A stretch of 64,000 bases of DNA from Oscillospiraceae bacterium (lineage in GTDB: Bacteria > Bacillota > Clostridia > Oscillospirales > SIG627): assembly GCA_015063985.1 (NCBI GenBank), contig SVTC01000007.1, positions 35,477-99,476 of the forward strand. Direction: 5' to 3'. Positions 139 to 60,910 of this stretch are shown piece by piece. The position numbers were made by a program, and so were the translations under genes. Every line of letters starts with the position of its first letter. The stretch's first letter is position 1. The notes below the pieces were generated by a model that worked only from the letters and a program-made list of their open reading frames with translations, made no database searches and was not told the origin of the DNA.

Positions 139-420
139 ATGGCAATAACCCTTTGCTGTCACGGCCACCCCAATGTAACCTTAGCACCCGATGCTCCCCC
201 GCAGACCCTTTGGTGTGCGATGGATCAAAAAAGCACGGTAAGCTTTTCCAGCATCGGAGAAAATAAAGCAATGCTCAGTGTAAACCGAACGGTATTTTTA
301 AAAAACTCAAAAATAGAGCAATCGGAATATCCCGTCAGTTACGACAGAAAGCTATCGGTGGAGCAAAATCTACTCAACTGCGCCGCAAAACTCATCACAG
401 AGAAAGGAAAAGAAAAATGA
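139..420 (+). CDS. hypothetical 93-aa protein, translationally coupled to the downstream helicase
   Basis: GGAGG lies 6 nt upstream of the ATG at 139. The stop overlaps the next start in an ATGA at 417-420. I recognise no motif. Confidence 0.5.
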   Translation: MAITLCCHGHPNVTLAPDAPPQTLWCAMDQKSTVSFSSIGENKAMLSVNRTVFLKNSKIEQSEYPVSYDRKLSVEQNLLNCAAKLITEKGKEK

Positions 421-16247: not shown

Positions 16248-16360
16248 CAGAGGTTTTCCACATATGTGGAAAACCTCTGTGGAAAAGTTATTGTAAACCA
16301 AAATCCCTTTTTTATACTCTTTTATCGACTTTTTTCTCAGATGCTTAAAGTTATGTAAAC
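16248..16360. repeat. copy 1 of a dispersed repeat: 32-bp perfect palindrome, GTTATTGTAAACC box and TATGTAAAC box
   Basis: CAGAGGTTTTCCACATATGTGGAAAACCTCTG (16248-16279) is a perfect palindrome. The 47-nt core at 16253-16299 matches 17764-17810 at 41/47 positions. The second box, TATGTAAAC, is at 16352-16360. Confidence 0.85.
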
Positions 16361-17763: not shown

Positions 17764-17871
17764 GTTTTCCACACCTGGGGAAAACTCCTGTGAAAAAGTT
17801 ATTGTAAACCTCGAAAACTCCTTTTTCGGGCTTTTAAGCCATTATTTTCTCCGATAAAAAAATATGTAAAC
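17764..17871. repeat. copy 2 of the 16248-16360 repeat
   Basis: GTTTTCCACACCTGGGGAAAACTCCTGTGAAAAAGTTATTGTAAACC (17764-17810) and TATGTAAAC (17863-17871). The two boxes sit at the same 53-nt offset as in copy 1. Confidence 0.85.
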
Positions 17872-24886: not shown

Positions 24887-25963
24887 ATGTTAAATTCTCT
24901 CACTTTGAAAAGGAATATTAAAAGCTTTTCCGTTTCACCGGAAAATCCCACGGGAGAAAAGGGAAGGGGCGGTATGGCAACTCTCGAAAATGCAAGCGCT
25001 GCAAGAGCCGCAAGAGAGCTGGGAACGGGTTGGAAGCTCAATCCGTACATTGTTCTGGATGGGCAAAAAACAGCCGTTCTTGCCGACATTAAGGGAGAGG
25101 GCGCCATTAAGCATTTCTGGATAACCGACAGCGCTCAAAGAGGAAGACACCTTATTTTGCGCATTTATTTCGATTCTCAAAGCTCCCCCGCCGTTTGTGC
25201 CCCGCTTTCCGATTTCTTCGCCAATGCAGACTACAACGACTACCGCGCCGTCAACAGCCTTGCAATGTGCTTCAACCCCAAAAAGGGAATGAATTGCTAT
25301 TTTGAAATGCCTTATTTCAAGGGCTTTCGCGTAGAGGTGGAAAACTTAAGCGAGCACCCCGCCAATATCTACTATCAGATAGACTGCGAGGAAAAAAAGC
25401 TTGATCCCGATTCTCTTTATTTTCACGCCCAATTCAGAAGAGTGAATCCCCTGCCCTATAAATCGGTCTACACTATTTTGGACAACGTTAAAGGAAAGGG
25501 CCAGTACGTGGGAACCTATCTTCATTGGGGAGTAAAATCCAACGGCTGGTGGGGAGAGGGAGAGATAAAGTTCTTCATCGACGGAGACACCCAATACCCC
25601 ACGATATGCGGCACGGGAACCGAGGATTATTTCTGCGGAGCCTATAATTTTGACGTAGGCGGAAAGTACACGGAATTCTGCACGCCCTACACGGGTCTGT
25701 CAAAGGTGGAAAGAACCGACGATCTGTACAAGGTCCAAAAGCACTTTGATATGTACCGCTGGCATATAACCGACCCCGTTTATTTTGATAAAGATATAAG
25801 GGTAACCATTCAGGCATTGGGCTGGCGAAGCGAGGGCAGATACCTCCCACTGCAGGATGACATTTCCTCGGTGGCTTATTGGTATTCCGATAATCTTTCC
25901 GATGAATATCCCCCTCTCCCCGATAACGACTCCCTTGAATTGATCGGCGGCACCAAGCTGTAA
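24887..25963 (+). CDS. DUF2961-family protein (glycoside hydrolase family 172-like)
   Basis: 358 aa with the GTGTEDYF motif and a beta-jelly-roll-like composition characteristic of DUF2961. The RBS is GGAGGAG. Confidence 0.65.
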   Translation: MLNSLTLKRNIKSFSVSPENPTGEKGRGGMATLENASAARAARELGTGWKLNPYIVLDGQKTAVLADIKGEGAIKHFWITDSAQRGRHLILRIYFDSQSSPAVCAPLSDFFANADYNDYRAVNSLAMCFNPKKGMNCYFEMPYFKGFRVEVENLSEHPANIYYQIDCEEKKLDPDSLYFHAQFRRVNPLPYKSVYTILDNVKGKGQYVGTYLHWGVKSNGWWGEGEIKFFIDGDTQYPTICGTGTEDYFCGAYNFDVGGKYTEFCTPYTGLSKVERTDDLYKVQKHFDMYRWHITDPVYFDKDIRVTIQALGWRSEGRYLPLQDDISSVAYWYSDNLSDEYPPLPDNDSLELIGGTKL

Positions 25964-25983
25964 AGGAGAATATGTAAATACAA

Positions 25984-26028
25984 AAAGCCCGATGAACTGC
26001 AGTTAGATTCTTCGGGCTTTTGCTTTTT
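25984..26028 (+). terminator. intrinsic terminator of the DUF2961 gene
   Basis: AAAGCCCGA ... TCGGGCTTT stem followed by TGCTTTTT. Confidence 0.55.
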
Positions 26029-27628: not shown

Positions 27629-28900
27629 TTATTCTACCGTCACAAACACTCCGTCGCCCTGCTCTAAGCTTACCGTGAAAACACCGTTACAAGGCTTTAA
27701 TTCCGAGGGCTCTCCGTCGCGGTAAATGGTTATTTTCCCATTTGCCTTAAAGCTTGCGGTAGCAGTCTTGGGCTTCTGAAAATCCTGCATATTCACAAGG
27801 GTAAACGCCTTACCTTCGCCCTTTTCCTTCTCAAAGCATCCCACAAGCAAGGGGGTATCACAAGAAATGTCCCATATAGCGTCAAAATCCGTATAGGGGG
27901 TGTTCATTTCAAGATACGGGGTAGTCTCGGGGGATGAATTTACGTTGAAGGCGCCCAGATTTTTATAGCTTACAAACAACGGCGAAAGCTTCTTTAAGCC
28001 CAACGCCAATTTTTGAGCTTCAAAATAGAGAGCATTTCTTTCCCCTATGAAATCCATCAAAGCATAATCGTGTCCGGGGCGAGCGGCGAAAACGTAGTAC
28101 AAAAAGTTAGTGGTACCGTAGGAAAGGCAAGTATAAGCCTGCCATCTCAGCTCGGCGCCGTCCACGGGGCGCACGTTTTTGTACCAGGTGCAGCTCTGAA
28201 GACATATCCACAATTCCCTATTGCTCTTTCTTGCCGCATTTGCTCCGTACTCAATGTTTTTAACGTAATCGGGGTAATTATATTTAATATGCTTTACCGG
28301 ATACATATCGGGATATTCGGGATCGGGACGGCGCTTGCAGGGATATATGTCTATGCATATATAGTGGGTATCGATAAGTCTTATATATTCGTCAAGATAG
28401 GTCTTGTAGATATGGTCGTCGGAGGAATAATACTCTATGGGAGCCGCCCAAGCACCACCCTTAAGCTGCTGCTCGTTGGCATAAAGGGGCAAAAGATTAA
28501 TGAAGGCGAATTTATCGGGATATCTTTTGTTAAATTCACTTACCTCCCTGCCAAGCTCCTCGAACACTGCCATTCCGGGCTCGTCGATATAGGAATAGGA
28601 AATATATCCGGGCTCATTTTTATAGAACATCAGCTCTTCTTTATCAAAATCCAGAACCGTAGCGTGATCTCCCACCGTCTTGTTGGTCTTGGGATCGTCC
28701 ACCGCAAAATCTATGCCGTATTTGGAAAACCAGGACATAAATTCGGGGCTTATCTTATCGGGGGCAATGAGCTTAAACTCTATCACCGCAAAATCCACGC
28801 CTGCCTCGCCAAGCTCCTTAACGTGCTTTTCGTCGGGGTGTGATACGGGCATATATGCGCCAAATCTTATCCTTTTTTCAAAAGCTCTTCCTTTTTTCAT
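27629..28900 (-). CDS. hypothetical protein (possibly a glycoside-hydrolase-like TIM barrel)
   Basis: 423-aa ORF in the sugar-gene context. I have no motif I can name with confidence. Confidence 0.55.
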   Translation of the reverse strand: MKKGRAFEKRIRFGAYMPVSHPDEKHVKELGEAGVDFAVIEFKLIAPDKISPEFMSWFSKYGIDFAVDDPKTNKTVGDHATVLDFDKEELMFYKNEPGYISYSYIDEPGMAVFEELGREVSEFNKRYPDKFAFINLLPLYANEQQLKGGAWAAPIEYYSSDDHIYKTYLDEYIRLIDTHYICIDIYPCKRRPDPEYPDMYPVKHIKYNYPDYVKNIEYGANAARKSNRELWICLQSCTWYKNVRPVDGAELRWQAYTCLSYGTTNFLYYVFAARPGHDYALMDFIGERNALYFEAQKLALGLKKLSPLFVSYKNLGAFNVNSSPETTPYLEMNTPYTDFDAIWDISCDTPLLVGCFEKEKGEGKAFTLVNMQDFQKPKTATASFKANGKITIYRDGEPSELKPCNGVFTVSLEQGDGVFVTVE

Positions 28901-34029: not shown

Positions 34030-34106
34030 TTTACATAACATTGTTTACATTAGTATTATGTAAATCATTAAATTTACATAAGTTATAATATCTGTATTTA
34101 TGTAAA
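34030..34106. repeat. cluster of TTTACATAA / TTATGTAAA boxes
   Basis: TTTACATAA at 34030-38 and 34073-81, TTTACAT at 34044-50, and TTATGTAAA at 34056-64 and 34098-106. Confidence 0.8.
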
Positions 34107-34120
34107 CAATTTTCAAGAAT

Positions 34121-34506
34121 AAAGGAAGGCTTTTTAGCGTAGTGCCCTTAAGGACACTACGCGTCGATATAGATCCGCTTGCGCGGATCTTCGATATACG
34201 CTGACACGTTCGATATGATGTTTGCTACGCAAACACTCGATATGCTCACCGCGTGAGCGCGGATCTATATCATATCAAGCTTGAGTGTAGCGAAAGCATA
34301 TCGAATTTGCCGCAAGGCAAATATATCGAGCCGAGCGAAGCGACGGCATATCGACAAATAGCATCTGTGGACACAGATGCAGTGCTTGCAAAGAAAAGAG
34401 GACAGAGAGTGTAAAAACATTCTCTGTCCTCTTCCTGTCGGTGGGTGCTATTTCTATTGAATCTAAAACTATCCTTAAGAGTACGTCTCTTTAGAGTCTT
34501 CCTTTT
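34121..34506 (-). repeat. hairpin-ladder element, copy A (TIR-bounded; orientation given relative to copy B)
   Basis: AAAGGAAGGC (34121-30) pairs with GTCTTCCTTT (34496-505). Inside, TCGATAT occurs 4 times and then ATATCGA 3 times, interleaved with perfect hairpins without spare nucleotides. A terminator-like hairpin is at 34398-34431. Confidence 0.85.
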
Positions 34507-34517
34507 TACACCATTAA

Positions 34518-34550
34518 GTTTACATAACACACCAAATTCCAAGTTATGTA
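34518..34550. repeat. TTTACATAA-N16-TTATGTA inverted repeat
   Basis: GTTTACATAA at 34518-27 and TTATGTA at 34544-50. Confidence 0.75.
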
Positions 34551-34562
34551 TTTGTGACCCTA

Positions 34563-34734
34563 AACACCATCGAGCACTGTATTTGCGTGAACTATGTCGT
34601 CATTGAAGGTTTTTTGCCTACTTTTTTTCAAAGCTCACGTCCCTATCAGTACTAATATGACCTTCGAGCACTGTGTTTGTACTGACTTTACCGACATTGA
34701 AAGTTTTTTGCCTACTTTTTTTCAAAAAAGTAGG
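34563..34734 (-). repeat. stop-codon-abutting hairpin plus two tandem units of about 94 bp (locus A)
   Basis: The palindromic hairpin CCTAC T7 C A6 GTAGG (34711-34734) starts at the nucleotide after the TAA of the oxidoreductase gene. The unit core is GCAAAAAAC..TTCAATGTCG..AACACAGTGCTCGA. Confidence 0.85.
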
Positions 34735-35772
34735 TTATGCTTTGGGATATTTGATCTTAACGGGCATACCGGTCTTGGTGGACTCAACGGTAGCGGTGCA
34801 GACAGCCACGGTGCTTGCGCCCTCAAGACTGCTTACGGGGAGGGGAGTGTTGTTAACAAGGGCGTTGACAAAGGCATCGATTTCCGCGGTAATATTGTGG
34901 TTGTTGATCTCGATGGGTATCTCCTTGCCCTTGGTGAAGCTGCTTTTGCCGTTTTCCAGAGGACCGACGTCTTCAAAGAGCGTCATTGTGGGAGAGGTGT
35001 TGTCGCAGATTATGGTACCGTTGGTGCCGTAGAAAACACTTCTCATTGTGTAATCTCTCTTGCATCCGATGGAGGTGAACACCTTACCTGCAACGTTGTT
35101 GGGGAACTTGTAGATGGCAACTGCACAGTCGTCTGTGGGCCAGGTCGTGAGACACTTGTGGTTAGCAATGGCATATACCTCGCCGGGGTTGCCCGCGATC
35201 CATCTGAGAAGATCAACTGCGTGGCATCCGCCGCCGATAAAGCCGTGTCTTTCGGGTGTTACTCTCCAATCGTCCACACCTCTTGCCTTGGCATAGCTGT
35301 GAGCGTATTCGCTTTCAACAAAGAAAAGCTCGCCGATCTTGCCCTCCTCGATGAGCTTCTTTGCCTGCAAAAAGGCGGGGGTGCAACGGCATACCTGACC
35401 GATCATAAGTCTTCTGCCGGACTCCTTTTCGGCATCGATCATTCTCTGACACTGCTCCATATCAAGAGCCATAGGCTTTTCGCAAAGAACGTCCTTGCCG
35501 GCTCTGAGGAATGCTTCGGTCATTTCCAGATGGTACTGGTCGGGTGTAACGATAACCGCCGCATCAACCTTGGGATCGTTTACAAATTCTCTGTAATCGG
35601 TCACCGCCTTTTCAACGTCAGGGAAGCCCTCAAGCCTCTTTTTGAGAATGTCCTCGTGCTTGTCGCATATTCCGTAAAGCTTTGCGCCTTCCTTTGCAAC
35701 AACTCCGTCCATGTGACGTCTTGCCATATCACTGCATCCGATAACTACAATGTTTAAAACTTTATTTTCCAT
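34735..35772 (-). CDS. Gfo/Idh/MocA-family NAD(P)-dependent oxidoreductase
   Basis: N-terminal Rossmann motif (NIVVIGCSDMARRH) and the EKPM motif (CEKPMAL). 345 aa. Confidence 0.85.
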   Translation of the reverse strand: MENKVLNIVVIGCSDMARRHMDGVVAKEGAKLYGICDKHEDILKKRLEGFPDVEKAVTDYREFVNDPKVDAAVIVTPDQYHLEMTEAFLRAGKDVLCEKPMALDMEQCQRMIDAEKESGRRLMIGQVCRCTPAFLQAKKLIEEGKIGELFFVESEYAHSYAKARGVDDWRVTPERHGFIGGGCHAVDLLRWIAGNPGEVYAIANHKCLTTWPTDDCAVAIYKFPNNVAGKVFTSIGCKRDYTMRSVFYGTNGTIICDNTSPTMTLFEDVGPLENGKSSFTKGKEIPIEINNHNITAEIDAFVNALVNNTPLPVSSLEGASTVAVCTATVESTKTGMPVKIKYPKA

Positions 35773-36772: not shown

Positions 36773-36810
36773 CTTTATGAATATTTAAAACCTTCAAAAA
36801 ACACCGGGAT

Positions 36811-37085
36811 TATGTAAACCAAAAGCTTTCGAGCACTGTGTTTGCATTGATGTGATCGACATTGAAAGTTTTTGCCTGCTTTTTTTCAAAACTCACGTCC
36901 CTATCAGCGCTAATATGACCTTCAAGCACTGTGTTTGCACTGACTTTACCGACGTTGAAGGTTTTTTGCCTGCTTTTTTCAAAACTTCCATTAAAGTTGG
37001 CACTGATATCGCCATCGAGCACTGTGTTTGTGCTGACTCTGTCGACATTGAAAGTTTTTTGCCTACTTTTTTTCAAAAAAGTAGG
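36811..37085 (-). repeat. stop-codon-abutting hairpin plus three 93-bp tandem units ending in GGTTTACATAA (locus C); open in frame with the upstream gene
   Basis: The hairpin at 37062-37085 starts right after TGA (37086-88). GCACTGTG recurs at 36833, 36926 and 37019, giving a 93-nt period. The minus-strand frame is open for 91 codons up to the TAA inside the TTTACATAA box. Confidence 0.85.
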
Positions 37086-38429
37086 TCAGAACAGCTTTTC
37101 GCAGAATTCCTCGATGAGACCCAGATCCCAAGCCAAACGGCTTGCAACATACTTGTCGCGGATATCCTTGGTTGCCTTGAAGGAATCCTTGAGGCAATCG
37201 GGACAGATACCGATCTCCTCAACCGCCTTGGGTGCACCGATAAGGTCCATAAGATCCTCAACGGTCTTAGCATCGGGGAGCTCTTCTGCCATGATCTTCT
37301 TGATCTCGTCCCAATTATCGATGATCTTTTCAAGACGTGCGGCGTGCTTTTCGAGATTGTATTTGCCGGCGCCTGCCTCTGCCTCGATCATAGTCTCTGC
37401 GGCAGTGCCCAGAAGCTTTCTCAGATCCTCGCTCCAAGCCTCGAAGGAGAAGCTCTTAACGTAGCTGAGAGCCTTTTCTCTGTCGGGAGTTGCCGCCTTA
37501 AGAAGATCGTATACCTTAAGGCTGAGAAGCGTACCTATGCCAACCTGAATACCGTGAAGATCCACGGGAGTTCCAAGCTCAAGACCTCTCATATCCCAAA
37601 CGTGGGAGAAGTAGTGCTCCATACCGGAAGCGGGACGGCTCATACCGGCGTAGTTCATACCGATGCCCGCAATGAGCATACCCTCCATAACACTCTTTAC
37701 GCTTTCGGGGTCGCGCTTGATAAGACCCGCAGCGCCGTCAACAACGCGCTTAAGTGCGGTACGTACAAGACCTGCAACGTTTTCGCAGTAGTACTCTCCG
37801 ATGAGAAGGCTTGCTATTCTCCATTCGCAAATGGAAATGTACTTTGCAAGCATATCGCCAACGCCGGCCTGGAGCATTTTCATGGGAGCATTGCAAAGAA
37901 TATCAAGATCGCCGATAACTACCTGAGGGCAGGTGGAATCAAGAGAGACCTTAAGGCCGTCTCTTGCCATAGAAGAGGTCGCAGATGCGTAACCGTCCAT
38001 ACTGGGTGCAGTTCCAACGATAAAATAAGGGTGACCCGTGATCTTGGAAAGGATCTTTCCCAGATCGTTGATAACACCGCCGCCAACGCCGACGATAAGA
38101 TCGCAGCTGTGGTCGTAGTGCATCACGGCACTGCCAACAGCCCACTCATCGGGCTCAAGATGCTCTTTTCTGAAGGCGTAACGGCTGTGGGGGATCCCCG
38201 CAGCGTCAAGCTCTGCCTCGCAAAGCTCTCCTGCCGCCTTGTAGGTGTTAGTGTCGCAAAGGATAAACACCTTCTTGCCGCCGTACTTTTTAACCAGCTC
38301 GGCAAGCTTTTTTACAGCACCCTTCTCAATGTATGCTTCCTTTACCATTGCAAAATGCTTTTTGCCGCAATCGCACAGTGCGCCGTCGTTGGCAAGAAGC
38401 TCCGCAACGGTTGCTTTTGTCATATCCAT
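37086..38429 (-). CDS. iron-containing alcohol dehydrogenase family protein (glycerol-1-phosphate dehydrogenase/AraM-like)
   Basis: Family-typical GGGVINDLGK and polyol-dehydrogenase His motifs. The start at 38429 (MDMTKA) has GGAGG 8 nt upstream. Confidence 0.7.
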   Translation of the reverse strand: MDMTKATVAELLANDGALCDCGKKHFAMVKEAYIEKGAVKKLAELVKKYGGKKVFILCDTNTYKAAGELCEAELDAAGIPHSRYAFRKEHLEPDEWAVGSAVMHYDHSCDLIVGVGGGVINDLGKILSKITGHPYFIVGTAPSMDGYASATSSMARDGLKVSLDSTCPQVVIGDLDILCNAPMKMLQAGVGDMLAKYISICEWRIASLLIGEYYCENVAGLVRTALKRVVDGAAGLIKRDPESVKSVMEGMLIAGIGMNYAGMSRPASGMEHYFSHVWDMRGLELGTPVDLHGIQVGIGTLLSLKVYDLLKAATPDREKALSYVKSFSFEAWSEDLRKLLGTAAETMIEAEAGAGKYNLEKHAARLEKIIDNWDEIKKIMAEELPDAKTVEDLMDLIGAPKAVEEIGICPDCLKDSFKATKDIRDKYVASRLAWDLGLIEEFCEKLF

Positions 38430-38496
38430 ATTATTTACCTCCAAATCAATCTCTTACACTATTATATTATATCAACGCTCTTTCGTCAAGAGGCGT

Positions 38497-47764: not shown

Positions 47765-49840
47765 ATGAACATTCCGCTTCCCTCAATAGGCGCCAAAGCC
47801 ATTAATTATCCTCACTTTCCGTCCCGTCAGCAAGAATTCATCTTCCGCTCCCATGAATTTGCCACTCCCTTGCAGATGGCAAAGCTTTTAAAAACCGACG
47901 AAAAGACCGTCCTTGAAGCAATGGATGCAATGGGCATAAAGCCCGGAGAATACTGCGCTCAAATGATGGCAAAAAGCTACATTACCTTGATCAAGCAGCT
48001 CTGGCACGTTTTAAACTACGATCAGCTCCTTGAATTTTTGGGAATGACCTCCGACGAGCTCGCCATCACCTTAAGAGAAGAGGATTTTCTTGATGTAAAG
48101 CTCAAGGCAAAGCCCGACTGCGATCCCCTTTTCTGGGAGGAGCTCAGCCCCGAACAGATCAAAGCCACAAAGCTTATCAAAGAAGCAATGGCAGACGTTT
48201 CCCTCTCGGGAAAGGCCCCCTTTGATTTTGAATACAACGTCACTCCTCTGCAATTCTCAGGCAAGGCAAGCTTCGATCTTCGCATCCTCTACTTTTTCTC
48301 GGGGCTTTTCCAGCACGCCTTCGACGTTGACAGTGAAGAATACCTGCCCGATTCTATGCTCCAAGCCTACCAAAGCATAGGGATAAACGGTCTCTGGACC
48401 CAAGGCATACTCTATCAGCTCTGCCCCTTCCCCTTTGAGCCAAAGCTATCCGAGGGCTGGGAAAAGCGAATGGAAAACCTTAAAAAGCTCGTTGGCAGAA
48501 TGAAAAAATACGGCATCAAGCTCTATCTCTACCTCAACGAGCCCCGTTCTATGCCCGCCGCCTTCTACGAAAAATATCCCCATCTCAGAGGACACGAGGC
48601 ACAAAAGGAAAAGATCTGCCTTTGCACGTCCACTCCCGACGTACAAAAATACCTCACTGACAGCGTGGAGCTTATCTGCCGCGAGGTACCCGACATCGGC
48701 GGCTTCTTCTCGATAACCCGCTCCGAAAATCCTTCCAACTGCTACTCCCACTCCAATCCCGAGACCTGCACCTGTCCCCGTTGCTCTAAGCGCCCCTTAC
48801 CCGAGGTAATAGGAGAATACTTCTCCCTTCTTCGCCGCGGCGCAGACAGAGTCAGCTCCGGTATAAAGGTAATGGCTTGGAGCTGGGGTTGGAACACCCG
48901 CAATCTTGACATTATCCGCGCTCTGCCTCAAAACGTGATCCTACTCAGCCAAAGCGAGCTTGACATCCCCTACACCATCGGCGGAGTCAGCGGCAACGTT
49001 TTAGACTATTCCATAAGCATTCTCGGCCCCGGCGAAAGAGCTCTCAAGGAATGGGAGGTGGCCAAGGAGTGCGGTCTGGAGTTGGGAGCAAAGGTGCAAA
49101 TAAACACCTCCTGGGAGTGCTCCACTGTTCCCGCCATCCCCGTCTACGATCTCATCGAGGAGCATATAAAGCGTCTTCGCGATCTCAACATCAAAAACCT
49201 TCTTCTCAGCTGGACTCTCGGCGGCTTCCCATCAAGAAACGTAATGCGAATAGCTCAGTATTTCCACGAAGGCTTGGATAATCCCGAAGCCATTTCCTTG
49301 ACCCCCGCAGAGAAAAAGGCATCCGCCCTCTTTTGCGAGGCGTTTAAAAACTTCCCCTTCAGCTGCAGCGTTCTCTATTCAGGACCCCAGAACGGCGGAC
49401 CTTCCAATCTTCTCTACGCCGAGCCCTCAGGCTACAAGGCAACGATGACCTGCTTTGCCTACGATGATCTCAACGGCTGGAGAAGCCGTTATCCGGTGCC
49501 CGTTTTCTACGATCAGTTCTCCAAGATCTGCGACATATGGAAGCAGGGGCTTGAGCTTATCCAAAACGACAGCGGCGAAATGGCAACTATGGCAAAAGCA
49601 GCTTATCTCGTCTTCTCCTCCTGCCGCGATCAGATAGCCTTCTACGTCGCCCGCGAGAAAAACGACACCGCCTCAATGGCCGAGCTGGCAAAAAAAGAAG
49701 AGCAGACCGCAAGAGCTATGCTTAAGCTTATGAACGAGAACGCTTCCATCGGCTTTGAAGCGGCAAATCAATACTACTATTCCCGCTCCGTCTTAGCCGA
49801 AAAGATCATAAACTGCCGCTACATCTCTTCCCTTTTTTAA
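47765..49840 (+). CDS. hypothetical 691-aa protein (likely carbohydrate-active; family not recognised)
   Basis: Long uninterrupted ORF with an AGGAG RBS and a CTCPRC motif. It sits among sugar-utilisation genes. Confidence 0.6.
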   Translation: MNIPLPSIGAKAINYPHFPSRQQEFIFRSHEFATPLQMAKLLKTDEKTVLEAMDAMGIKPGEYCAQMMAKSYITLIKQLWHVLNYDQLLEFLGMTSDELAITLREEDFLDVKLKAKPDCDPLFWEELSPEQIKATKLIKEAMADVSLSGKAPFDFEYNVTPLQFSGKASFDLRILYFFSGLFQHAFDVDSEEYLPDSMLQAYQSIGINGLWTQGILYQLCPFPFEPKLSEGWEKRMENLKKLVGRMKKYGIKLYLYLNEPRSMPAAFYEKYPHLRGHEAQKEKICLCTSTPDVQKYLTDSVELICREVPDIGGFFSITRSENPSNCYSHSNPETCTCPRCSKRPLPEVIGEYFSLLRRGADRVSSGIKVMAWSWGWNTRNLDIIRALPQNVILLSQSELDIPYTIGGVSGNVLDYSISILGPGERALKEWEVAKECGLELGAKVQINTSWECSTVPAIPVYDLIEEHIKRLRDLNIKNLLLSWTLGGFPSRNVMRIAQYFHEGLDNPEAISLTPAEKKASALFCEAFKNFPFSCSVLYSGPQNGGPSNLLYAEPSGYKATMTCFAYDDLNGWRSRYPVPVFYDQFSKICDIWKQGLELIQNDSGEMATMAKAAYLVFSSCRDQIAFYVAREKNDTASMAELAKKEEQTARAMLKLMNENASIGFEAANQYYYSRSVLAEKIINCRYISSLF

Positions 49841-50018
49841 CACACCTTTTTGAAAAAAGGTGTGCCAAAAACTTTTATTGTCGATAAAGTCAGCATAAAC
49901 AAAGCAATCGATGGTTTTCTCGGCCCGAAACCATACTTTCCTTTTTGAAAAAAGGTGTGCCAAATACCTTTATTGTCGATAAAGTCAGTGCACACGGTAC
50001 TCTATTCATTTATTTACA
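49841..50018 (+). repeat. stop-codon-abutting hairpin plus two tandem units of about 95 bp (locus D), variant hairpin sequence
   Basis: CACACC T5 G A6 GGTGTG (49841-49864) starts right after TAA (49838-40). The conserved core is CCAAAAACTTTTATTGTCGATAAAGTCAG, and the array ends near TTTACA at 50013-18. Confidence 0.8.
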
Positions 50019-50025
50019 GCTTTTA

Positions 50026-50064
50026 CAAGATCAGCAGAAAATCCTTCTGCTGATCTTGCATTTT
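50026..50064 (+). terminator. intrinsic terminator downstream of locus D
   Basis: A 14-bp stem, CAAGATCAGCAGAA / TTCTGCTGATCTTG, with a 5-nt loop, followed by CATTTT. Confidence 0.6.
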
Positions 50065-50265
50065 AGCGAGACAGACAACAATAATAATCGTTTTTCGAAG
50101 AGAAATTATTCCGCAGATCACAGGCCATCAAAAAACATAACCAAAAAAATCAACATTTTTCACTTTTTTCACTCTCGCCACCCCCTTGCATATCAAAAAA
50201 CAAGAGAGTTTTTTGTGCAACTTTCACAAAAATTCAATATTTTTTTCTACAGTGTAAAAAAACAC

Positions 50266-50294
50266 TTGACTTTTTTGTTGAAATTTGCTAAAAT
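50266..50294 (+). promoter_or_regulatory. strong sigma-A type promoter with an A/T-rich upstream region
   Basis: TTGACT (50266-71), a 17-nt spacer, then TAAAAT (50289-94). Confidence 0.65.
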
Positions 50295-50300
50295 ATATAC

Positions 50301-50514
50301 GTAAACAACAAGAGCGGTTATTTCTTCGGAAATGCCGCCATTAAATATAGCTTACTTCACATCGCTCAGTTTTTTCTCCTCTCTCTTTCTTTTCTGAGCG
50401 AATTTGTTTTTTGGGGTCCCCTCCCCAAACATTGATTACTTGAGCCTTGGAACACAGGCATTATCGTACATAGATCCCCTTTTTAAAAAACGCTTCCTTC
50501 GGGAAGCGTTTTTG
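50301..50514 (+). ncRNA. candidate standalone small RNA of about 214 nt (family unknown)
   Basis: It is bounded by the promoter above and by the terminator CGCTTCC ttcg GGAAGCG + TTTTT (50491-50513). Internal hairpins are at 50314-38 (UUCG loop), 50363-50400 (24-nt all-pyrimidine loop) and 50410-29. There is no downstream same-strand gene. Confidence 0.5.
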
Positions 50515-50524
50515 CGTTAAAAAG

Positions 50525-50553
50525 CATCCCCCGCAAAAGATTTGCGGGGGATG
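50525..50553 (-). terminator. intrinsic terminator of the 50567-52651 gene
   Basis: A 13-bp stem, CATCCCCCGCAAA / TTTGCGGGGGATG. The minus strand is followed by CTTTTTAA. Confidence 0.65.
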
Positions 50554-53591: not shown

Positions 53592-53733
53592 TTTATGATC
53601 CTCCACCAATTTTATTTTTTTCATTATATCATGGGCAAGCGTTTTTTTCAATAAAAACTTCTTCCAAAATTATTGAAACTGTGTTATAATGACCTTAGCC
53701 TTAAAATTTCAAACTTTCCCTTGGAGAAGCCTT

Positions 53734-55731
53734 ATGATAATCGAAAACAAAAGCTTTAAAATAGACATCTGTGACAAAACGGGCGCCACCTCGGCGATCA
53801 TTTCCCTTGAAAACGGTTTTAATTGGGTCCTTTCCGATTCCAATTGGGGGCTGGTCGAAGGATTTGAGACCCAAAGCGTCGTTTCAGAGGCTAACTGCGT
53901 TAAAGTAAACACCTTTAACAGCGAAAGAAACGTTCAGATCACAATCGAAAAAAGCCTTGATGAAAGCGACTATTTTGAAAGCTACAAGATCACAAACCAT
54001 CACGTCTCCGACGTTTTTCTCACAAAAGATAATTTCGGCATCCCCTTTTCTTATGATTGCCTCTATGACAAAAGGCGGGACTTTATGAACGAGTGTTGCA
54101 TCAGCCACCTTTGGTGCGGAGGCGACTGTGCGTGGATCTATTCGGTCAGATGCTCCGGCGAAGCTCCCTATCTGGTCATGAATCTGACCGAGGGCGCGAT
54201 CGACGATTACAGCATCAGCTACGATATTTCCAGAACCAAAAACGCTTCATTCTACAGAGGCGCCTTTTTGCTCCACCCCCGCAATCTTTTTCTTTTACCA
54301 AAGGAAACCAAAACTCTCACCTTCCGCTACAGACTTCAAAACCAAAAGCCCGAAAGCGCCCCTCTTGATCATGCGGGTGCCATCAGATTCACGGCGGATA
54401 AATATACCGTCAAAAGGGATGAAGAAATTTCCCTTCTCTTTGAAAGCGCATCACGCTTTGAAAATCTGAAGCTCTCCTGCGAGGATAAGTCCATCCCCTT
54501 TGAAAGCTCCGAAAACCGTGCCCGCGCAAAAATCAAATTCCAAACCACAGGCGAGCGCCTTATCACCGCAGAGGCAGACGGAAAAGTTACTCATCTTAAA
54601 ATAAACGTTATTTTGCCGATAGGCGAGCTTTTACAAAGAAGAGCCCGCTTTATCTGCGAAAAACAGCAATATCTGAAGGAGGACAGCAATCTTTTCGGAG
54701 CATATCTGGTCTATGACGACGAAACAAAAAGCCTTTATTACGACAGCGCTTGGCAGGACTACAACGCGGGAAACGAGCGTATCGGCATGGGAGTTTTGGT
54801 CTGCAAGGCACTGCAGGAAAAATTCGACCAAAAACTCTTTCAATCCTTGAAGCTCCACCGAAGCTTTGTGGAAAGAGAGCTTTTCGACAGCGAAAGCGGC
54901 ATGGTCTACGACAACGTCGCAGTAAAAAAGGACTTCCCCAGGATCTATAACTTCCCCTGGGTCTCCACCTATTATCTTGAATGGTATAATCTCAGCGGCG
55001 AAGTAAAATGCTTGGAAAACTCCGCAAAGATCCTCATAAAATTCTATGAAAACACCCACTGCAAGCTGGGCGCACAGTGTATCGAAGCCTATAAGATCCT
55101 GACAGCCTTGAAAAAAGAGGGCTTGGATTCTCTTTACAACAAGCTTTTGGAGCTGTTTTTATGCTATATCGAAAAGATAGATGCAGAGATAGTTGAGCAC
55201 GAGGGTCACACCAACGAAACCTCCTACGTCAGCGAGATCCCAAACCAAACCCTTTCCTATTTCTCTCAGGCAGCCCTTTTAACGGGAAAGGAAAAATATC
55301 TGCAATATGCCCGCGACAGCTTGAAAAAGAGCCAATGCTTTTTTGCAAATCAGCCCGATTTCCACCTTAACTGCGTAAACGTTCGTTATTGGGACAGATA
55401 TTGGTTCGGAAAGATAAAATCCTACGGCGACGTTTTCCCCCACTATTGGAGCACTCTTGCCGCTTGGGGAATGTATTGGTATAACAAAGCGACAAACAGC
55501 AGCCAAACCGAGGAAATGATCTATAATAACCTCACGGGCAACCTTTGCATCTACCGAGAGGACGGCTTTGCTCACAACAATTACCTCTACCCCTATAAGG
55601 TCATCCAATATTCCGCAAACCCCGAAAAGCAAAATAAATATCTCACCCCCGGGGTTTTCTACGGTAAATCCTACGACGCCTTCGCAAACGACCAGGACTG
55701 GGCGCTTTATTACGCAAGCTCTATTCTTTAA
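53734..55731 (+). CDS. hypothetical 665-aa protein
   Basis: Long ORF. The start at 53734 has GGAGAA 6 nt upstream. I recognise no motif. Confidence 0.55.
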   Translation: MIIENKSFKIDICDKTGATSAIISLENGFNWVLSDSNWGLVEGFETQSVVSEANCVKVNTFNSERNVQITIEKSLDESDYFESYKITNHHVSDVFLTKDNFGIPFSYDCLYDKRRDFMNECCISHLWCGGDCAWIYSVRCSGEAPYLVMNLTEGAIDDYSISYDISRTKNASFYRGAFLLHPRNLFLLPKETKTLTFRYRLQNQKPESAPLDHAGAIRFTADKYTVKRDEEISLLFESASRFENLKLSCEDKSIPFESSENRARAKIKFQTTGERLITAEADGKVTHLKINVILPIGELLQRRARFICEKQQYLKEDSNLFGAYLVYDDETKSLYYDSAWQDYNAGNERIGMGVLVCKALQEKFDQKLFQSLKLHRSFVERELFDSESGMVYDNVAVKKDFPRIYNFPWVSTYYLEWYNLSGEVKCLENSAKILIKFYENTHCKLGAQCIEAYKILTALKKEGLDSLYNKLLELFLCYIEKIDAEIVEHEGHTNETSYVSEIPNQTLSYFSQAALLTGKEKYLQYARDSLKKSQCFFANQPDFHLNCVNVRYWDRYWFGKIKSYGDVFPHYWSTLAAWGMYWYNKATNSSQTEEMIYNNLTGNLCIYREDGFAHNNYLYPYKVIQYSANPEKQNKYLTPGVFYGKSYDAFANDQDWALYYASSIL

Positions 55732-55743
55732 ACTTGGTTTTAA

Positions 55744-55778
55744 TTTACATAATTTGCCGCATTATAATATTATGTAAA
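55744..55778. repeat. TTTACATAA-N17-TTATGTAAA inverted repeat in a convergent intergenic region
   Basis: TTTACATAA at 55744-52 and TTATGTAAA at 55770-78. Confidence 0.8.
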
Positions 55779-55793
55779 CATAATACACATATT

Positions 55794-55829
55794 AAAAGAC
55801 GCTCAGGGAATTTTCCGAAAGCGTCTTTT
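55794..55829. terminator. bidirectional terminator
   Basis: AAAAGACGC ... GCGTCTTTT stem with an 18-nt loop, between convergent genes. Confidence 0.55.
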
Positions 55830-55840
55830 TAGTTTATATT

Positions 55841-56650
55841 TTAAATTTCCTCGTCGCCGTGTTTTGCCATCCATTCCAAAGCCACGTCGTAAGCTTCGTA
55901 ATCCAAGTCAGCCATGGTGTTGGTGTGGAGCACAACTCCCTCTGCCTCGCCCGCAAGGATCTTTTCGCGGTAGAAATCCAACTGCCACTTCACAGATTCG
56001 CCCGTGGCTTGCTTGCTCTCTCCGAAATTATAGAGATAACAGCCAAACATACGGCGCTGGTTGGGAGTGAGCTTTTTCAAGATCTCGAACTTTTCGGGTA
56101 TCTGAGGCGCATTCTTTTCCTCCCAGTTCCACATAATAATTCCGTTAAAGGGATCCATATATTTTTTAAAGGCAAGATCCGATTCCGGCTTCACGCCGAA
56201 TTCGTGGGTATAGAGCACCATCCACATATCTATCTTTCGCACGGGGTTATTGTTAAGCCTTTCTCTGACTTCCCAAAGCTTCTTTTCGTCAACGGGCGGC
56301 AAGCCTTTTTTCTCCAAATATTTTGCTTTAACTCTGAAATCGTCAAAAACCGCCGCGGTAATATTGGGAAATTCCTTTGATTCTTCGATTATCTGCTCAA
56401 CCTTTTCGGGATGCGCATCAGCACCGAAACATTCCCAGCCCACCGCAGAAAGAGTTTTGAAGGATTTGTTATACTGTCTGCGATTCACGTCCACGCCCAC
56501 GGGCACCATAAAGGTCTTGCTTATTCCCATATACAAACAGCCCTCCATGGGAGTCATTCTGGACACCGCAAAGTTGCCGTAATTATCCGCGTTATTGTTA
56601 TAGCGTCCCTCGGGATGTCCCCACTGCCAAAAGGTATCTCTTAATTTCAT
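55841..56650 (-). CDS. hypothetical 269-aa protein
   Basis: Uninterrupted ORF with coding-like composition. I recognise no motif. Confidence 0.55.
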   Translation of the reverse strand: MKLRDTFWQWGHPEGRYNNNADNYGNFAVSRMTPMEGCLYMGISKTFMVPVGVDVNRRQYNKSFKTLSAVGWECFGADAHPEKVEQIIEESKEFPNITAAVFDDFRVKAKYLEKKGLPPVDEKKLWEVRERLNNNPVRKIDMWMVLYTHEFGVKPESDLAFKKYMDPFNGIIMWNWEEKNAPQIPEKFEILKKLTPNQRRMFGCYLYNFGESKQATGESVKWQLDFYREKILAGEAEGVVLHTNTMADLDYEAYDVALEWMAKHGDEEI

Positions 56651-59564: not shown

Positions 59565-60260
59565 ATGTACAACTCAAAGCTCAAAGCCCTCACCTTCAGC
59601 TTTGATGACGGCGTCACTCAGGATCAACGTCTTATCAAGCTATTGGACAAATATCACCTGCGCTCCACCTTCAACATAAATTCCGCAAGGCTGGATCAGG
59701 CCAAGATCCTCCTCGTAGGCGACGTGACGGTCAGCCACTGCAAGCCCCGTCCCTGCGAGATCAAGGCGATCTACCAAAACCACGAGGTGGCAGGCCACAC
59801 CCTCAGCCACCCCTGTCTGACCACCCGCAGTGACGACGAAATAGTCCGCGAGGTGGAGCAGGACCGTCTTGCTCTCTCCCAACTCTGCCAATACGAGGTG
59901 GTAGGCTTTGCCTATCCCGGAGGCTCCCAATACGTGGACGACAGAGTCATAAGCGCCGTAAGGACCCGCACCGGTGTTAAATACGCACGCAACGCCTGCA
60001 CCTCCGGCAGCTTCGATCCGCCCACCGATCTTTTCAACGTGATCCCCACCGCCTCCTTTCTTGACGGCAATATTTTGGAGCTTGCAAAAGAGTTTATCGC
60101 CATCTCTCCCCATTCCCCCAAGCTATTCTTCATCTACGGACACGCCTACGAGCCCGACGGCTACTCCGACGGCTGGGAAAGAGTGGAAAAACTCTTCTCT
60201 CTCATCTCGCACAAGGATGACGTCTTCTACGGCACCAACAAAGAATGCCTACTTTTTTGA
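59565..60260 (+). CDS. polysaccharide deacetylase (CE4 / NodB-homology domain)
   Basis: The LTFSFDDG and GHTLSHP motifs. The last 13 nt, including the TGA, lie inside the repeat hairpin at 60248-60271. Confidence 0.8.
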   Translation: MYNSKLKALTFSFDDGVTQDQRLIKLLDKYHLRSTFNINSARLDQAKILLVGDVTVSHCKPRPCEIKAIYQNHEVAGHTLSHPCLTTRSDDEIVREVEQDRLALSQLCQYEVVGFAYPGGSQYVDDRVISAVRTRTGVKYARNACTSGSFDPPTDLFNVIPTASFLDGNILELAKEFIAISPHSPKLFFIYGHAYEPDGYSDGWERVEKLFSLISHKDDVFYGTNKECLLF

Positions 60261-60506
60261 AAAAAAGTAGGCAAAAAACTTTTATTGTCGATAGACTCAG
60301 CACGAACACAGTGCTCGATGCTTTGCTTTTCGGGAACAACCCTTTTTAAAAGCAGGCAAAAAGCTTTTATTGTCGATGGAGTCGGCACGAACACAGTTCT
60401 CGATGCTTTGCTTTTCGGGAACAACCCTTTTTAAAAACAGGCAAAAAACTTTTATTGTCGATAGAGTCGGCACGAACACAGTGCTCAATGCTTTAACTTT
60501 ACATAA
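60248..60506 (+). repeat. hairpin plus three 85-bp tandem units ending in TTTACATAA (locus B)
   Basis: CCTAC T6 G A7 GTAGG is at 60248-60271. GGCAAAAA recurs at 60270, 60355 and 60440, giving an 85-nt period. TTTACATAA is at 60498-60506. Confidence 0.85.
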
Positions 60507-60545
60507 TTCGCATTTACAAATGTTATGTAGATCAAACAGAGCTAA

Positions 60546-60906
60546 AAAAGGAAGACCGACAAGAGGCACACTTCCTTACGGAGTGTGCCTCAATTTTCTT
60601 TTTATATAAAATTTGACACTTTCTGTTTGAAAGTGTCATAGTGGGTTACATACTTTGAAATATTACCTATCTCAAAGATAAAAATAATAAGTGATATTGT
60701 GAGACAGGTCTCACAGTGATATTTTTGATAAATCAAAAGTGATATTAAAACCTTGCGGTTTTAGTGATATTTTATTCGCCCCTAAACTCGCAAAGCGAAT
60801 AACACTCGGCTATAGCCGAATATAACTGCGAAGCAATACAACTCGCCTTTGGCGAATAAAACTGAGGCACACTTCCTTACGGAGTGTGCCTCAAGGTCTT
60901 CCTTTT
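60546..60906 (+). repeat. hairpin-ladder element, copy B (TIR-bounded)
   Basis: AAAAGGAAGACC (60546-57) pairs with GGTCTTCCTTTT (60895-906). An identical 31-nt hairpin unit occurs at 60563-93 and 60864-94. GTGATAT occurs 4 times and then ATAnnAC 4 times, interleaved with perfect hairpins. Confidence 0.85.
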
Positions 60907-60910
60907 GCTT

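Follow-up and report, generated by a model that had tools for sequence, protein, structure and literature searches.

This study concerns a short inverted-repeat motif in the intergenic DNA of an uncultured rumen Clostridia bacterium, followed in a 64,000-nucleotide stretch of its chromosome (contig SVTC01000007.1, positions 35,477 to 99,476; "the window" hereafter). The motif is the word (R)TTTACATAA, which we call the box; it would serve as a sequence-specific recognition motif, and most copies are doubled with an inverted partner into a 34- to 35-bp dyad. The motif looks like a protein-recognized recombination joint and not like chance or an ordinary promoter. Our preferred reading, held tentatively and by analogy, is that box and dyad are a protein-bound junction or recombination box, like dRS3 of the Neisseria mosaics or like pdif. 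The motif is enriched in the window, has a regular dyad geometry in which only the arms are conserved, and stands at the ends of repeat modules, at terminators, and between convergent genes. It persists in diverged strains, and synteny breaks fall in or beside the intergenic mosaics that contain it. From these patterns in the DNA we infer the binding of a protein and catalyzed recombination at the dyad. Because the half-site matches the XerD arm of Firmicute dif sites and the arms are oriented as in dif, a Xer-type tyrosine recombinase would be the leading candidate enzyme.

The box is enriched in intergenic DNA and pairs into dyads

Counting both strands, the window holds 10 exact copies of TTTACATAA/TTATGTAAA, at 34030(+), 34056(-), 34073(+), 34098(-), 34519(+), 36810(-), 55744(+), 55770(-), 60498(+), and 16351(-). 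All 10 are intergenic and none is coding; intergenic DNA makes up 6,844 bases of the window (10.7%) and has 37% G+C. Dinucleotide shuffles of the whole window gave an expectation of 0.54 copies, and Markov models of order 1 to 3 trained on intergenic bases alone gave 0.21 to 0.37, with none of 2,000 simulations under the latter reaching 10. Thus, A+T-rich intergenic composition, which an earlier sequence-only reading of this stretch had named as the finding that would undo its proposal, does not explain the frequency. The sites listed in that reading all exist, with offsets of at most one base (its site at 36811 is 36810-36820), and the five boxes that it saw at 34030-34106 are there, the fifth (34044) being TTTACATTA with one mismatch.

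Five pairs of boxes in the window form dyads of the type TTTACATAA-N16/17-TTATGTA(AA), a 9-16/17-9 layout of 34 to 35 bp. We also inspected the flanks, using contig L145 of the same strain, which covers 10 kb left of the window, and L148, which reaches to the right of it. The left flank contains six more exact boxes, of which one is coding and five are intergenic within a single mosaic between the convergent genes mntP and lon. This mosaic follows the same grammar as those of the window, and its pairs comprise two N16 dyads, each with one arm mismatch, and one N27 pair. Window and flanks together (about 84 kb) therefore hold at least 16 exact boxes. With 0 of 10 coding copies in the window and 1 of 6 in the left flank, the motif does not show the genome-wide excess, coding DNA included, of DNA uptake sequences (DUS) or uptake signal sequences (USS).

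When eight dyad units were compared, the arms were 93% identical and the spacers 32%, which is the random level. In three boundary units, common sequence was limited to the arms and the word AAAGGAAGRC, and the dyads at 34030, 34073, 55744, L145:6168, and L145:6255 have no mutual similarity in flank or spacer. The RNA hairpin potential of the dyad is negligible by estimate, not by computation, with nine pairs, eight of them A-U, around a 16- to 17-nt loop. We favor the view that the motif is read as sequence, with conservation in the arms only and a spacing that may vary by 1 bp. Homologous exchange of the RecA type needs longer matches than 9-bp arms around unrelated spacers, so exchange at these sites would imply a targeted process.

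Of 10 convergent intergenic regions, 5 contain an exact box, as does 1 of the 35 other intergenic regions (Fisher P = 0.001); near-boxes adjoin terminators in two further convergent regions. The earlier claims that the boxes are mostly 3' intergenic and that several sit where no promoter is expected are thus borne out, the second as far as convergent regions are concerned; two N17 dyads nonetheless match TTTACA-18-TATTAT.

Boxes lie at the distal ends of most module arrays

A second repeat family in these regions, here called the module, has a 50-nt core (GCAAAAAACTTTYAATGTCGAT...CAAACACAGTGCTCGATG). Module arrays were located independently of the box with an nhmmer profile of this core, run over the window, its flanks, and one relative. 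Seven arrays were found, each of one to three units with a period of 85 to 94 nt. In five of the seven, the distal unit is followed at 6 to 17 nt by an exact box: A (34567-34711), B (36828-37062), D (60271-60490), L145:6048-6097, and L136:1724-1772. The two exceptions are array C, which has only the decayed boxes TTTACAgc/TTTACAag, and one L145 array, whose dyad is 80 nt away. The proposal that boxes mark module ends accordingly holds for five arrays and fails for these two. Dyad A-right is 17 nt from module array A and 11 nt from the closing stem of the hairpin block described below, and dyad D begins 7 nt past the last unit of array D.

Every array opens with an A/T-rich hairpin that abuts or overlaps a stop codon and then extends away from that gene. 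The genes that precede the arrays encode a GFO oxidoreductase, Fe-ADH, a 691-aa protein, and a polysaccharide deacetylase, or are mntP and lon. Within arrays, the inter-module segments align to the box region as decayed copies, while the terminal box stays exact. This implies that the box is the 3' part of the repeat unit and is intact only in the terminal copy.

The modules were rejected as structured RNA, as 13 units gave no consensus fold. Coding sequence was rejected as well, since only array B has an open frame, those of A, D, and H are interrupted, and Pfam gives no match for the peptide. In array B, an open frame of 91 residues, within which the gene caller placed a 70-aa open reading frame (ORF), ends on the minus strand at the TTA of the box at 36810. 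The earlier observation that this box supplies a TAA that closes a frame is correct to that extent, but the frame is no gene; it is probably a by-product of unit and stop codon being copied together. The first unit of arrays A and B (34661-34737 and 36810-37088, minus strand) continues the frame of the upstream gene after its TAA (PTFLKKSRQKTFNV...). Separately, L145:5890-6040, about 3.6 kb left of the window, carries tandem G+C-rich hairpin units of about 44 nt (ATGGGGCGCTGCCCCATGCCCC...) between two modules of the mntP/lon mosaic.

Dyads flank terminators and hairpin-cassette blocks

An A-tract and a stem follow the box at a distance of 11 to 18 nt. At dyad E (55794-55830) and in the L145 mosaic, these are an ordinary bidirectional terminator. 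At two other loci they belong to larger blocks of 370 to 390 nt, block A (34121-34507) and block D (60544-60908), closed by the stem AAAGGAAGRC / GYCTTCCTTT. The layout of dyad, 13 to 16 nt, and AAAGGAAGRC is repeated at 34494-34550 (minus strand) and 60523-60557. Where both sides carry dyads (A and the L145 mosaic), these are symmetric around the central terminator or block.

Inside block A, four TCGATAT and three ATATCGA words alternate with perfect hairpins of unrelated sequence, and a terminator-like hairpin lies at 34398-34431. The block folds at -164 kcal/mol (z -10.5) on the plus strand and -157.7 kcal/mol (z -9.9) on the minus strand, and it has no Rfam match. Block D contains four GTGATAT words in runs separated by hairpins and folds with z scores of -12.3 and -13.0 (-140 versus -146 kcal/mol on the two strands). 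Covariance matches to Gut-1 (RF01706) were obtained in block D at 30.8 bits (60689-60775, plus strand) and 34.7 bits (60794-60864, minus strand). The two share their grammar, but as both scores stay under the 50-bit gathering threshold, block D is not a Gut-1 member by the Rfam criterion.

Taken together, we propose that a family of intergenic mosaics, specific to this lineage and placed between convergent genes, has the dyad or box as its conserved joint. One arm of such a mosaic would consist of a stop codon, an A/T-rich hairpin, one to three copies of the 50-nt module, and the box. Two arms, or one arm and a gene end without one, would face each other over a bidirectional terminator, which the dyads would flank at about 11 to 18 nt and which at some loci may have been enlarged to the 370- to 390-nt hairpin-cassette block. 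Each arm of the dyad would bind one protein monomer, and the joining or exchange of DNA segments would take place at the dyad. Such recombination, whether site specific or otherwise targeted to the dyad, could shuffle modules, hairpin cassettes, and neighboring gene blocks.

Strain comparisons place changes within or next to the mosaics

Many JGI and ENA samples yield contigs 99.9 to 100% identical to the window. The nearest other lineages, labeled as Clostridia or Ruminococcaceae metagenome-assembled genomes (MAGs), have protein identities of about 70 to 80%. The neighborhood changes at the mosaic in three of the five box-bearing loci that can be compared with other contigs or close strains.

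At dyad E, contig L272 (98.9% identical) shares with the window the 269-aa gene, the terminator, the first arm of the dyad, and 4 nt of the spacer, and homology ends at 55766. Past this point, neither the spacer nor the neighboring gene is related to the window, but TTATGTAAA still stands at precisely N17; by composition, the probability of an exact arm at N17 in unrelated DNA is about 4e-5. Contig L273 (98.2% identical) is collinear with the window. Two arrangements thus coexist, and their junction is a dyad with halves of different histories. A further contig, L270 (98.9%), diverges at 56085, within the 269-aa gene.

Contigs L140 (97.7% identical) and L141 (91.5%) both carry the AraC gene and the four-box cluster. 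Their changes are confined to spacers and linkers, except for one arm base in L141. Dyad 1 has a 1-nt deletion that turns N17 into N16 and destroys the middle (fifth) box. The 60 nt at 34073-34132 are unchanged in both contigs, where about five changes would be expected in L141 (8.5% diverged). Beyond 34132, the whole interior of block A is replaced by another structured block (z = -9.7), and the downstream gene is different. The replacing element (L140:1045-1660 and L141:1648-2229) is a 73 to 90% paralogue of L148:9418-9756, at about window position 64155-64493, to the right of the window. Because of this paralogue, we conclude that the genome has several circulating families of structured intergenic elements.

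These comparisons bear on the idea that the spacing of the half-sites suits a putative dimeric DNA-binding protein. The conservation of the arms next to spacers at random level, the toleration of N16 and N17, and the absence of change in dyad 2 and the next 26 nt at 2 to 9% strain divergence all agree with it.

In L136 (83% DNA identity), the hairpin, one module, and GTTTACATAA are kept 3' of the orthologous GFO gene. Contig L271 (80% amino-acid identity) has no box in 14 kb, from which we take the box expansion to be young and lineage specific. Orthologous loci in relatives with amino-acid identities of 71% and 80% have lost synteny and contain no boxes, which makes them uninformative on conservation. 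Two other differences were recorded: L150 departs at 62403, 22 nt into a GH28 gene, and L125 lacks 72 bp (28712-28783).

We also compared the mosaics with miniature inverted-repeat transposable elements (MITEs). Relatives show replacement of sequence and no clean absence, so no empty site was seen. Inverted copies of the unit of dyad, 11 to 14 nt, and AAAGGAAGRC bracket block A, and the unit is present on one side only in D, E, B, and L140. No direct repeats outside the dyads were noticed by eye, with no systematic search made.

The dyad recurs in other Clostridia

An exact-dyad scan covered 185,579 species genomes, and the results given here are those among the matches listed. They are heterogeneous: some are palindromes that arise by chance in A+T-rich phyla, others are terminator stems or conserved Clostridia sites. 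In G+C-rich Oscillospirales MAGs, where chance is negligible, the dyad is conserved across species before an MBL-fold gene, about 20 nt ahead of its start, and before spoIIE. At least seven Butyrivibrio loci have an exact dyad 17 to 47 nt past the stop codon of an approximately 830-aa DinG-like helicase, before a GGDEF gene. The first gene of the window (417-2600) also encodes a DinG-like helicase (DEAD_2, Helicase_C_2); the corresponding place in the window lacks a box.

Clostridiaceae bacterium M8S5 (CP118523.1) has five paralogous promoter/leader regions with the dyad and with TTTACA-17/18-TATTAT, 25 to 30 nt before a start codon (among them L084:3367-7054, L063:3598-3632, and L066:3991-4024). 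In four of the five, a called ORF encodes a secreted protein about 440 aa long. The M8S5 dyads lie between a TATAAT box and the ribosome-binding site, and the preceding ATA is conserved; this dyad looks like a paralogous operator or a second promoter. Across the Clostridia sites in other taxa, arms are conserved and spacers are free, which shows the palindrome as a recurrent element of a putative protein-recognition type in Clostridia.

Searches of sequence collections added little to these sites. The module core had no match in the metagenome_contigs collection, which does not contain this organism, while the same pattern occurs five times in the window. The dyad with AAAGGAAG gave two chance matches there, in DNA of 27 to 30% G+C. 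In viral_contigs, the dyad had five matches and no enrichment, and the inspected loci with multiple matches to the Gut-1-like word pattern were simple tandem repeats. As far as these searches reach, the mosaic system is lineage specific, and its modules were found nowhere else in the data.

Alternative explanations and points against recombination

It is possible, though on the unlikely side, that a dimeric transcription factor instead uses the dyad as its operator, or that the dyad is a weak pair of sigma-A-type promoters (-35 TTTACA), in either case for short non-coding transcripts. The transcripts could be 45- to 130-nt terminator-only RNAs, Gut-1-like cassette RNAs, or antisense RNAs running through modules into the 3' ends of convergent genes. 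E. coli bioO, the site for BirA, is a precedent for a 9-16-9 dimeric repressor site. At both 34030 and 55744, TTTACA-18-TATTAT matches the promoter consensus at 10 of 12 positions; at 55778, the reverse strand gives 9 of 12. The dyads E, D, A-right, and L145:6168 are followed within 45 to 130 nt by a T-run hairpin, as in small-RNA-like units. The perfect conservation of 34073-34132 in diverged strains would suit a promoter and start region, and the M8S5 and Oscillospirales dyads are promoter proximal. However, the -10 element fails in all N16 dyads (34073, 34519, and 60498), where the sequences ATTTAT, AGTTAT, and TGTTAT are without the invariant A2. Two-fold symmetry is not required of a promoter, single boxes persist, and the sites lie mostly between converging genes. 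This explanation also leaves unexplained the second arm on nonhomologous DNA at the L272 junction and the box as a fixed part of a 50-nt repeat unit without a fold. No common regulon emerged among the dyad-adjacent genes of other taxa in the matches listed. As for the AraC regulators, whose operator motifs the sequence-only reading had proposed for comparison, a link to the boxes is not supported: no AraC gene lies near the mntP/lon dyads, and one located just past the right end of the window lacks a dyad.

We consider it unlikely that the box is passive repeat DNA, that is, the functionless end of a 3'-untranslated-region or terminator repeat spread by duplication or gene conversion, with rearrangements arising from hairpins that are fragile and confuse assemblers. 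The boxes A-right, B, D, L136, and L145:6104 do stand at a fixed distance from a module and hence were copied along with it. Repeats F and G are diverged copies of one repeat of about 110 bp (family D7), many contigs of this organism end within mosaics, and the young, lineage-specific expansion suggested by L271 fits as well. Against passive spread, the internal box copies are decayed and the terminal one is exact. The dyads with unrelated flanks at 34030, 34073, 55744, L145:6168, and L145:6255 are not recent copies, and still their arms are 93% identical. Nor would passive DNA be expected to show 0 substitutions in 60 nt at 8.5% strain divergence or to keep the dyad geometry at the L272 junction. 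The mosaics are 100% identical in many independent samples and hence are not assembly artefacts.

A very improbable explanation is that these are non-recombining, architectural sites of XerD type or a true dif site. XerD-binding sites are reported to unload SMC complexes near the B. subtilis terminus, the half-site equals the dif XerD arm (9 to 11 of 11 positions), and the 10 to 11 bp of extra spacer preserve the angular relation of the arms. There are, however, at least 16 copies in about 84 kb and not one or a few, with neither a XerC-type arm nor a 6-bp central region. Cumulative GC skew drops monotonically across the window with no sign change, so the window is not the terminus. A complete dif site at 34081-34108 or 55753-55780 was rejected for want of a XerC arm. 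The likelihood of a chance A+T-rich word is negligible: intergenic DNA is A+T-rich, and such exact palindromes do arise by chance in A+T-rich genomes of many phyla, but the excess over the intergenic models, the five dyads with fixed spacing, and the retention of the motif in relatives stand against it.

Returning to the protein-recognized recombination box, several points weigh against it. Only one of the three mapped strain breakpoints (L272) falls within a dyad; in L140/L141, homology stops 26 nt past dyad 2, outside the dyad, and the 100% identical contig L001 departs at 60892, inside block D past the second GAGGCACACTTCCTTACGGAGTGTGCCTC copy and about 360 nt from the nearest dyad. Boxes without a partner exist at 36810 and in L136; at 36810, the expected position of the partner arm reads TTTAAAACC, a 5/9 match. 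We know of no crossover geometry with a 16- to 17-bp spacer, since tyrosine recombinases use 6 to 8 bp and serine recombinases a 2-bp center, and the 4 nt of spacer shared by L272 are a clean fit to neither. Pfam scans of about 30 window proteins and the precomputed annotations of the flank genes showed no integrase or transposase domain, and there was no recombinase gene among the genes checked with Pfam in the approximately 84 kb of window and flanks. Two N17 dyads read as acceptable sigma-70 promoters, and the promoter or leader position of the dyad in other Clostridia suits a transcription factor. Among the matches listed from the genome scan, no locus has the modules or repeats of the window.

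The earlier interpretation is partly supported; of its two suggested roles, module termini or recombination sites have the better support and fit better than an AraC link. The five arrays with a distal box, the box kept in L136, and the L272 break inside a dyad favor them, and the other breaks, 26 and about 360 nt away, do not. A stronger version seems quite unlikely to us: the dyads could be crossover or anchor sites of an undescribed Clostridia site-specific recombination system with XerD-like half-sites spaced 16 to 17 bp apart. Such a system would swap gene blocks between convergent junctions and capture or replace hairpin-cassette arrays beside a conserved multi-box site, as a chromosomal Firmicute counterpart of pdif-module or integron exchange.

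If the dyads are recombination joints, they would explain why neighborhoods at convergent gene ends differ among near-identical rumen Clostridia strains and why metagenome contigs of this organism break at mosaics. They would also point to a recombinase/site pair with an unusual 9-16/17-9 geometry and give a first genomic context for orphan Gut-1-type hairpin arrays. As operators or promoters, they would instead label a group of small transcripts at the 3' ends of genes. In both cases, the motif serves annotation as a practical flag for intergenic mosaics and cautions against calling ORFs through module arrays.

Feature coordinates and genomic setting

Positions of boxes, dyads, module arrays, and associated structures in the window
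Feature	Position	Strand	Description
Repeat F	16288..16360	-	TTATTGTAAACC (16288-16299), 51 nt, GTTATGTAAACC; exact box 16351-16359
Repeat G, diverged copy of F	17799..17871	-	TTATTGTAAACC (17799-17810), about 50 nt on ATATGTAAAC, one mismatch to box
Two TGTAAA near-boxes, TGTAAAGG and ATATGTAAAT	25959..25979	+	3 nt before terminator 25982-26021; convergent intergenic region
Dyad 1, A-left cluster	34030..34064		TTTACATAA-N17-TTATGTAAA; reads also as sigma-70-like TTTACA-18-TATTAT
One-mismatch direct box TTTACATTA	34044-34052		Inside dyad 1
Dyad 2, A-left cluster	34073..34106		TTTACATAA-N16-TTATGTAAA
Boundary word AAAGGAAGGC	34121..34130	+	5' half of block A closing stem, 14 nt past dyad 2
Hairpin-cassette block A interior	34131..34493		Two inverted 7-nt word runs, TCGATAT / ATATCGA
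GAGTCTTCCTTTTT	34494..34507	+	3' half of block A closing stem
Dyad A-right	34519..34550		GTTTACATAA-N16-GTTATGTA; right arm TTATGTAtt
Module array A	34567..34734	-	Two units and hairpin CCTACTTTTTTTCAAAAAAGTAGG at stop codon of GFO/IDH/MocA oxidoreductase gene (34735-35772, -)
Single box TTATGTAAACC	36810..36820	+	10 nt from module array B
Module array B	36828..37085	-	Three units and hairpin at stop codon of Fe-ADH gene (37086-38444, -)
Module array C	49841..50001	+	Hairpin directly 3' of stop of gene 47765-49840, then two units
Decayed boxes TTTACAgc, TTTACAag	50013..50058	+	Boxes 50013-50029; abut terminator hairpin 50026-50058
Dyad E	55744..55778		TTTACATAA-N17-TTATGTAAA; between convergent genes 53689-55731 (+) and 55841-56650 (-)
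Bidirectional terminator-like hairpin	55794..55830		AAAAGACGCT...AGCGTCTTTTT; 15 nt from dyad E
Module array D	60246..60490	+	Hairpin over stop of polysaccharide deacetylase gene (59565-60260), three 85-nt units
Dyad D	60498..60531		TTTACATAA-N16-TTATGTAGA; right arm TTATGTAgA; internal TTTACAAAT at 60513
Hairpin-cassette block D	60544..60908		Closed by AAAAAAGGAAGACC / GGTCTTCCTTTTGC; two copies of hairpin GAGGCACACTTCCTTACGGAGTGTGCCTC

The genes of the window are mainly for sugar metabolism, AraC regulators, uvrB, and housekeeping functions. The window has no tRNA gene and no Rfam match at the gathering threshold.

In repeats F and G, (T)ATGTAAAC is found at 16351-16360 and 17862-17871. Ahead of repeat F, at 16253-16274, stands the palindrome GTTTTCCACATATGTGGAAAAC, with two DnaA-box-like TTTTCCACA words and a 14-bp stem with its flanks. 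A degenerate copy lies at 17764-17785, and each copy is followed by TTATTGTAAACC, which includes TTGTAAACC. Words of the type TTTCCACA also adjoin the dyad in two other Clostridia loci, L117 and L011.

Near array C, a good sigma-70-like promoter (TTGACT-17-TAAAAT) lies at 50266-50294, and about 190 nt later there are two strong terminator hairpins (50486-50513 and 50525-50553). The segment 50266-50553 could be an unannotated small RNA or small ORF. A 119-aa ORF at 49945-50304 has no Pfam match.

Comparison with known systems

Extragenic mosaics with boundary boxes are a known kind of thing. To our knowledge, the present variant is undescribed: a 9-16/17-9 XerD-like dyad combined with stop-codon hairpins, terminators, and strain-variable Gut-1-like cassettes on a Clostridia chromosome.

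Widely spaced dimeric operators include bioO of BirA (9-16-9) and the RhaS/RhaR sites (17-16/17-17), and the present half-sites resemble them in being 16 to 17 bp apart. Unlike in bioO (TGTAAACC...GGTTTACA), the arms are everted here (GG..TTTACA...TGTAAA..CC), no biotin or rhamnose regulon logic is visible, and the sites are mostly outside promoters. The near-boxes TTGTAAACC at 16291 and 17802 match the E. coli bioO half-site. They have no partner, and no biotin genes are nearby, and a BirA operator was rejected on these grounds and on the everted arms. LacI/CcpA-type cre, the GlnR box, the Spo0A box, a sporulation-sigma -10 (CATA), and a TcdR/BotR-type promoter (TTTACA/GTTATA) were compared by eye with consensus sequences and rejected because orientation, spacing, or consistency failed.

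Gut-1 has been reported from gut metagenomes alone, as a likely non-coding RNA (PMC2864571). Block D resembles it in having runs of a 7-nt word (GUGAAAU in the consensus, GUGAUAU here) between at least three hairpins of free sequence. Unlike Gut-1, there are two inverted runs inside one closing stem, and the hairpins are perfect Watson-Crick palindromes, with both strands folding almost alike. The word of block A is TCGATAT, which gives no Gut-1 match.

Modular extragenic repeats at 3' ends or between convergent genes, with an amplified inner module (boxB), are familiar from the bacterial interspersed mosaic elements (BIMEs) and repetitive extragenic palindromic (REP) sequences of E. coli and from BOX of S. 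pneumoniae. The present mosaics likewise have few module types at 3' or convergent ends and a tandem inner unit, here of 85 to 93 nt. In REP, the hairpin is conserved, whereas here an unstructured 50-nt module and an A+T-rich dyad are conserved and the hairpins vary. No gene of the REP-associated tyrosine transposase (RAYT) type was seen among the genes checked.

A dif site is 28 bp long, with two 11-bp arms and a 6-bp center (up to 8 bp in plasmid sites), and occurs once per replicon at the GC-skew switch. The half-site TTATGTAAAC(T) equals the Firmicute XerD arm, and the arms face each other (CATAA...TTATG). The B. subtilis dif is ACTTCCTAGAATATATATTATGTAAACT, with the XerD arm TTATGTAAACT (PMC3025954). 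All 10 exact boxes match the first nine positions of this arm and 9 to 11 of 11 overall, and AGTTTACATAA (34517-34527) is its reverse complement at 11 of 11. In contrast to dif, CATAA and TTATG are separated by N16/17 and not by N6, about one helical turn more; all dyads have 16 or 17 bp (one pair 27) between 9-bp arms. The partner arm is XerD-like too, and the 11 nt found at a 6-nt distance resemble neither ACTTCCTAGAA nor GGTGCGCATAA. The sites also number at least 16 on about 84 kb of chromosome, with no GC-skew switch. Successive box loci are separated by gene blocks of 1.5 to 13 kb, in the way that pdif sites in Acinetobacter bracket dif modules.

In the Neisseria intergenic mosaic elements (NIMEs), short inverted-repeat boxes (dRS3, ATTCCC-N8-GGGAAT) separate intergenic modules and mark rearrangements, and dRS3 is the target of a phage integrase (PMC3898611). 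The resemblance is one of analogy and not of homology, given the different phylum and unrelated motif. The box here is 34 to 35 bp with a free 16- to 17-bp spacer, unlike the 20-bp dRS3 with N8, and the mosaics are linked to the ends of convergent genes and to terminators and begin precisely at a stop codon. Unlike dRS3, the present box is not known to have a cognate integrase or phage, and no integrase was seen among the genes checked here. What the two systems have in common is a recurrent inverted-repeat box in intergenic arrays of a few hundred bp, separating repeat modules (30 to 160 bp in Neisseria). In A, B, D, and the L145 mosaic, the boxes stand between module arrays and terminators or hairpin blocks, and the arrays coincide with strain rearrangements (L272, L140/L141, and L001).

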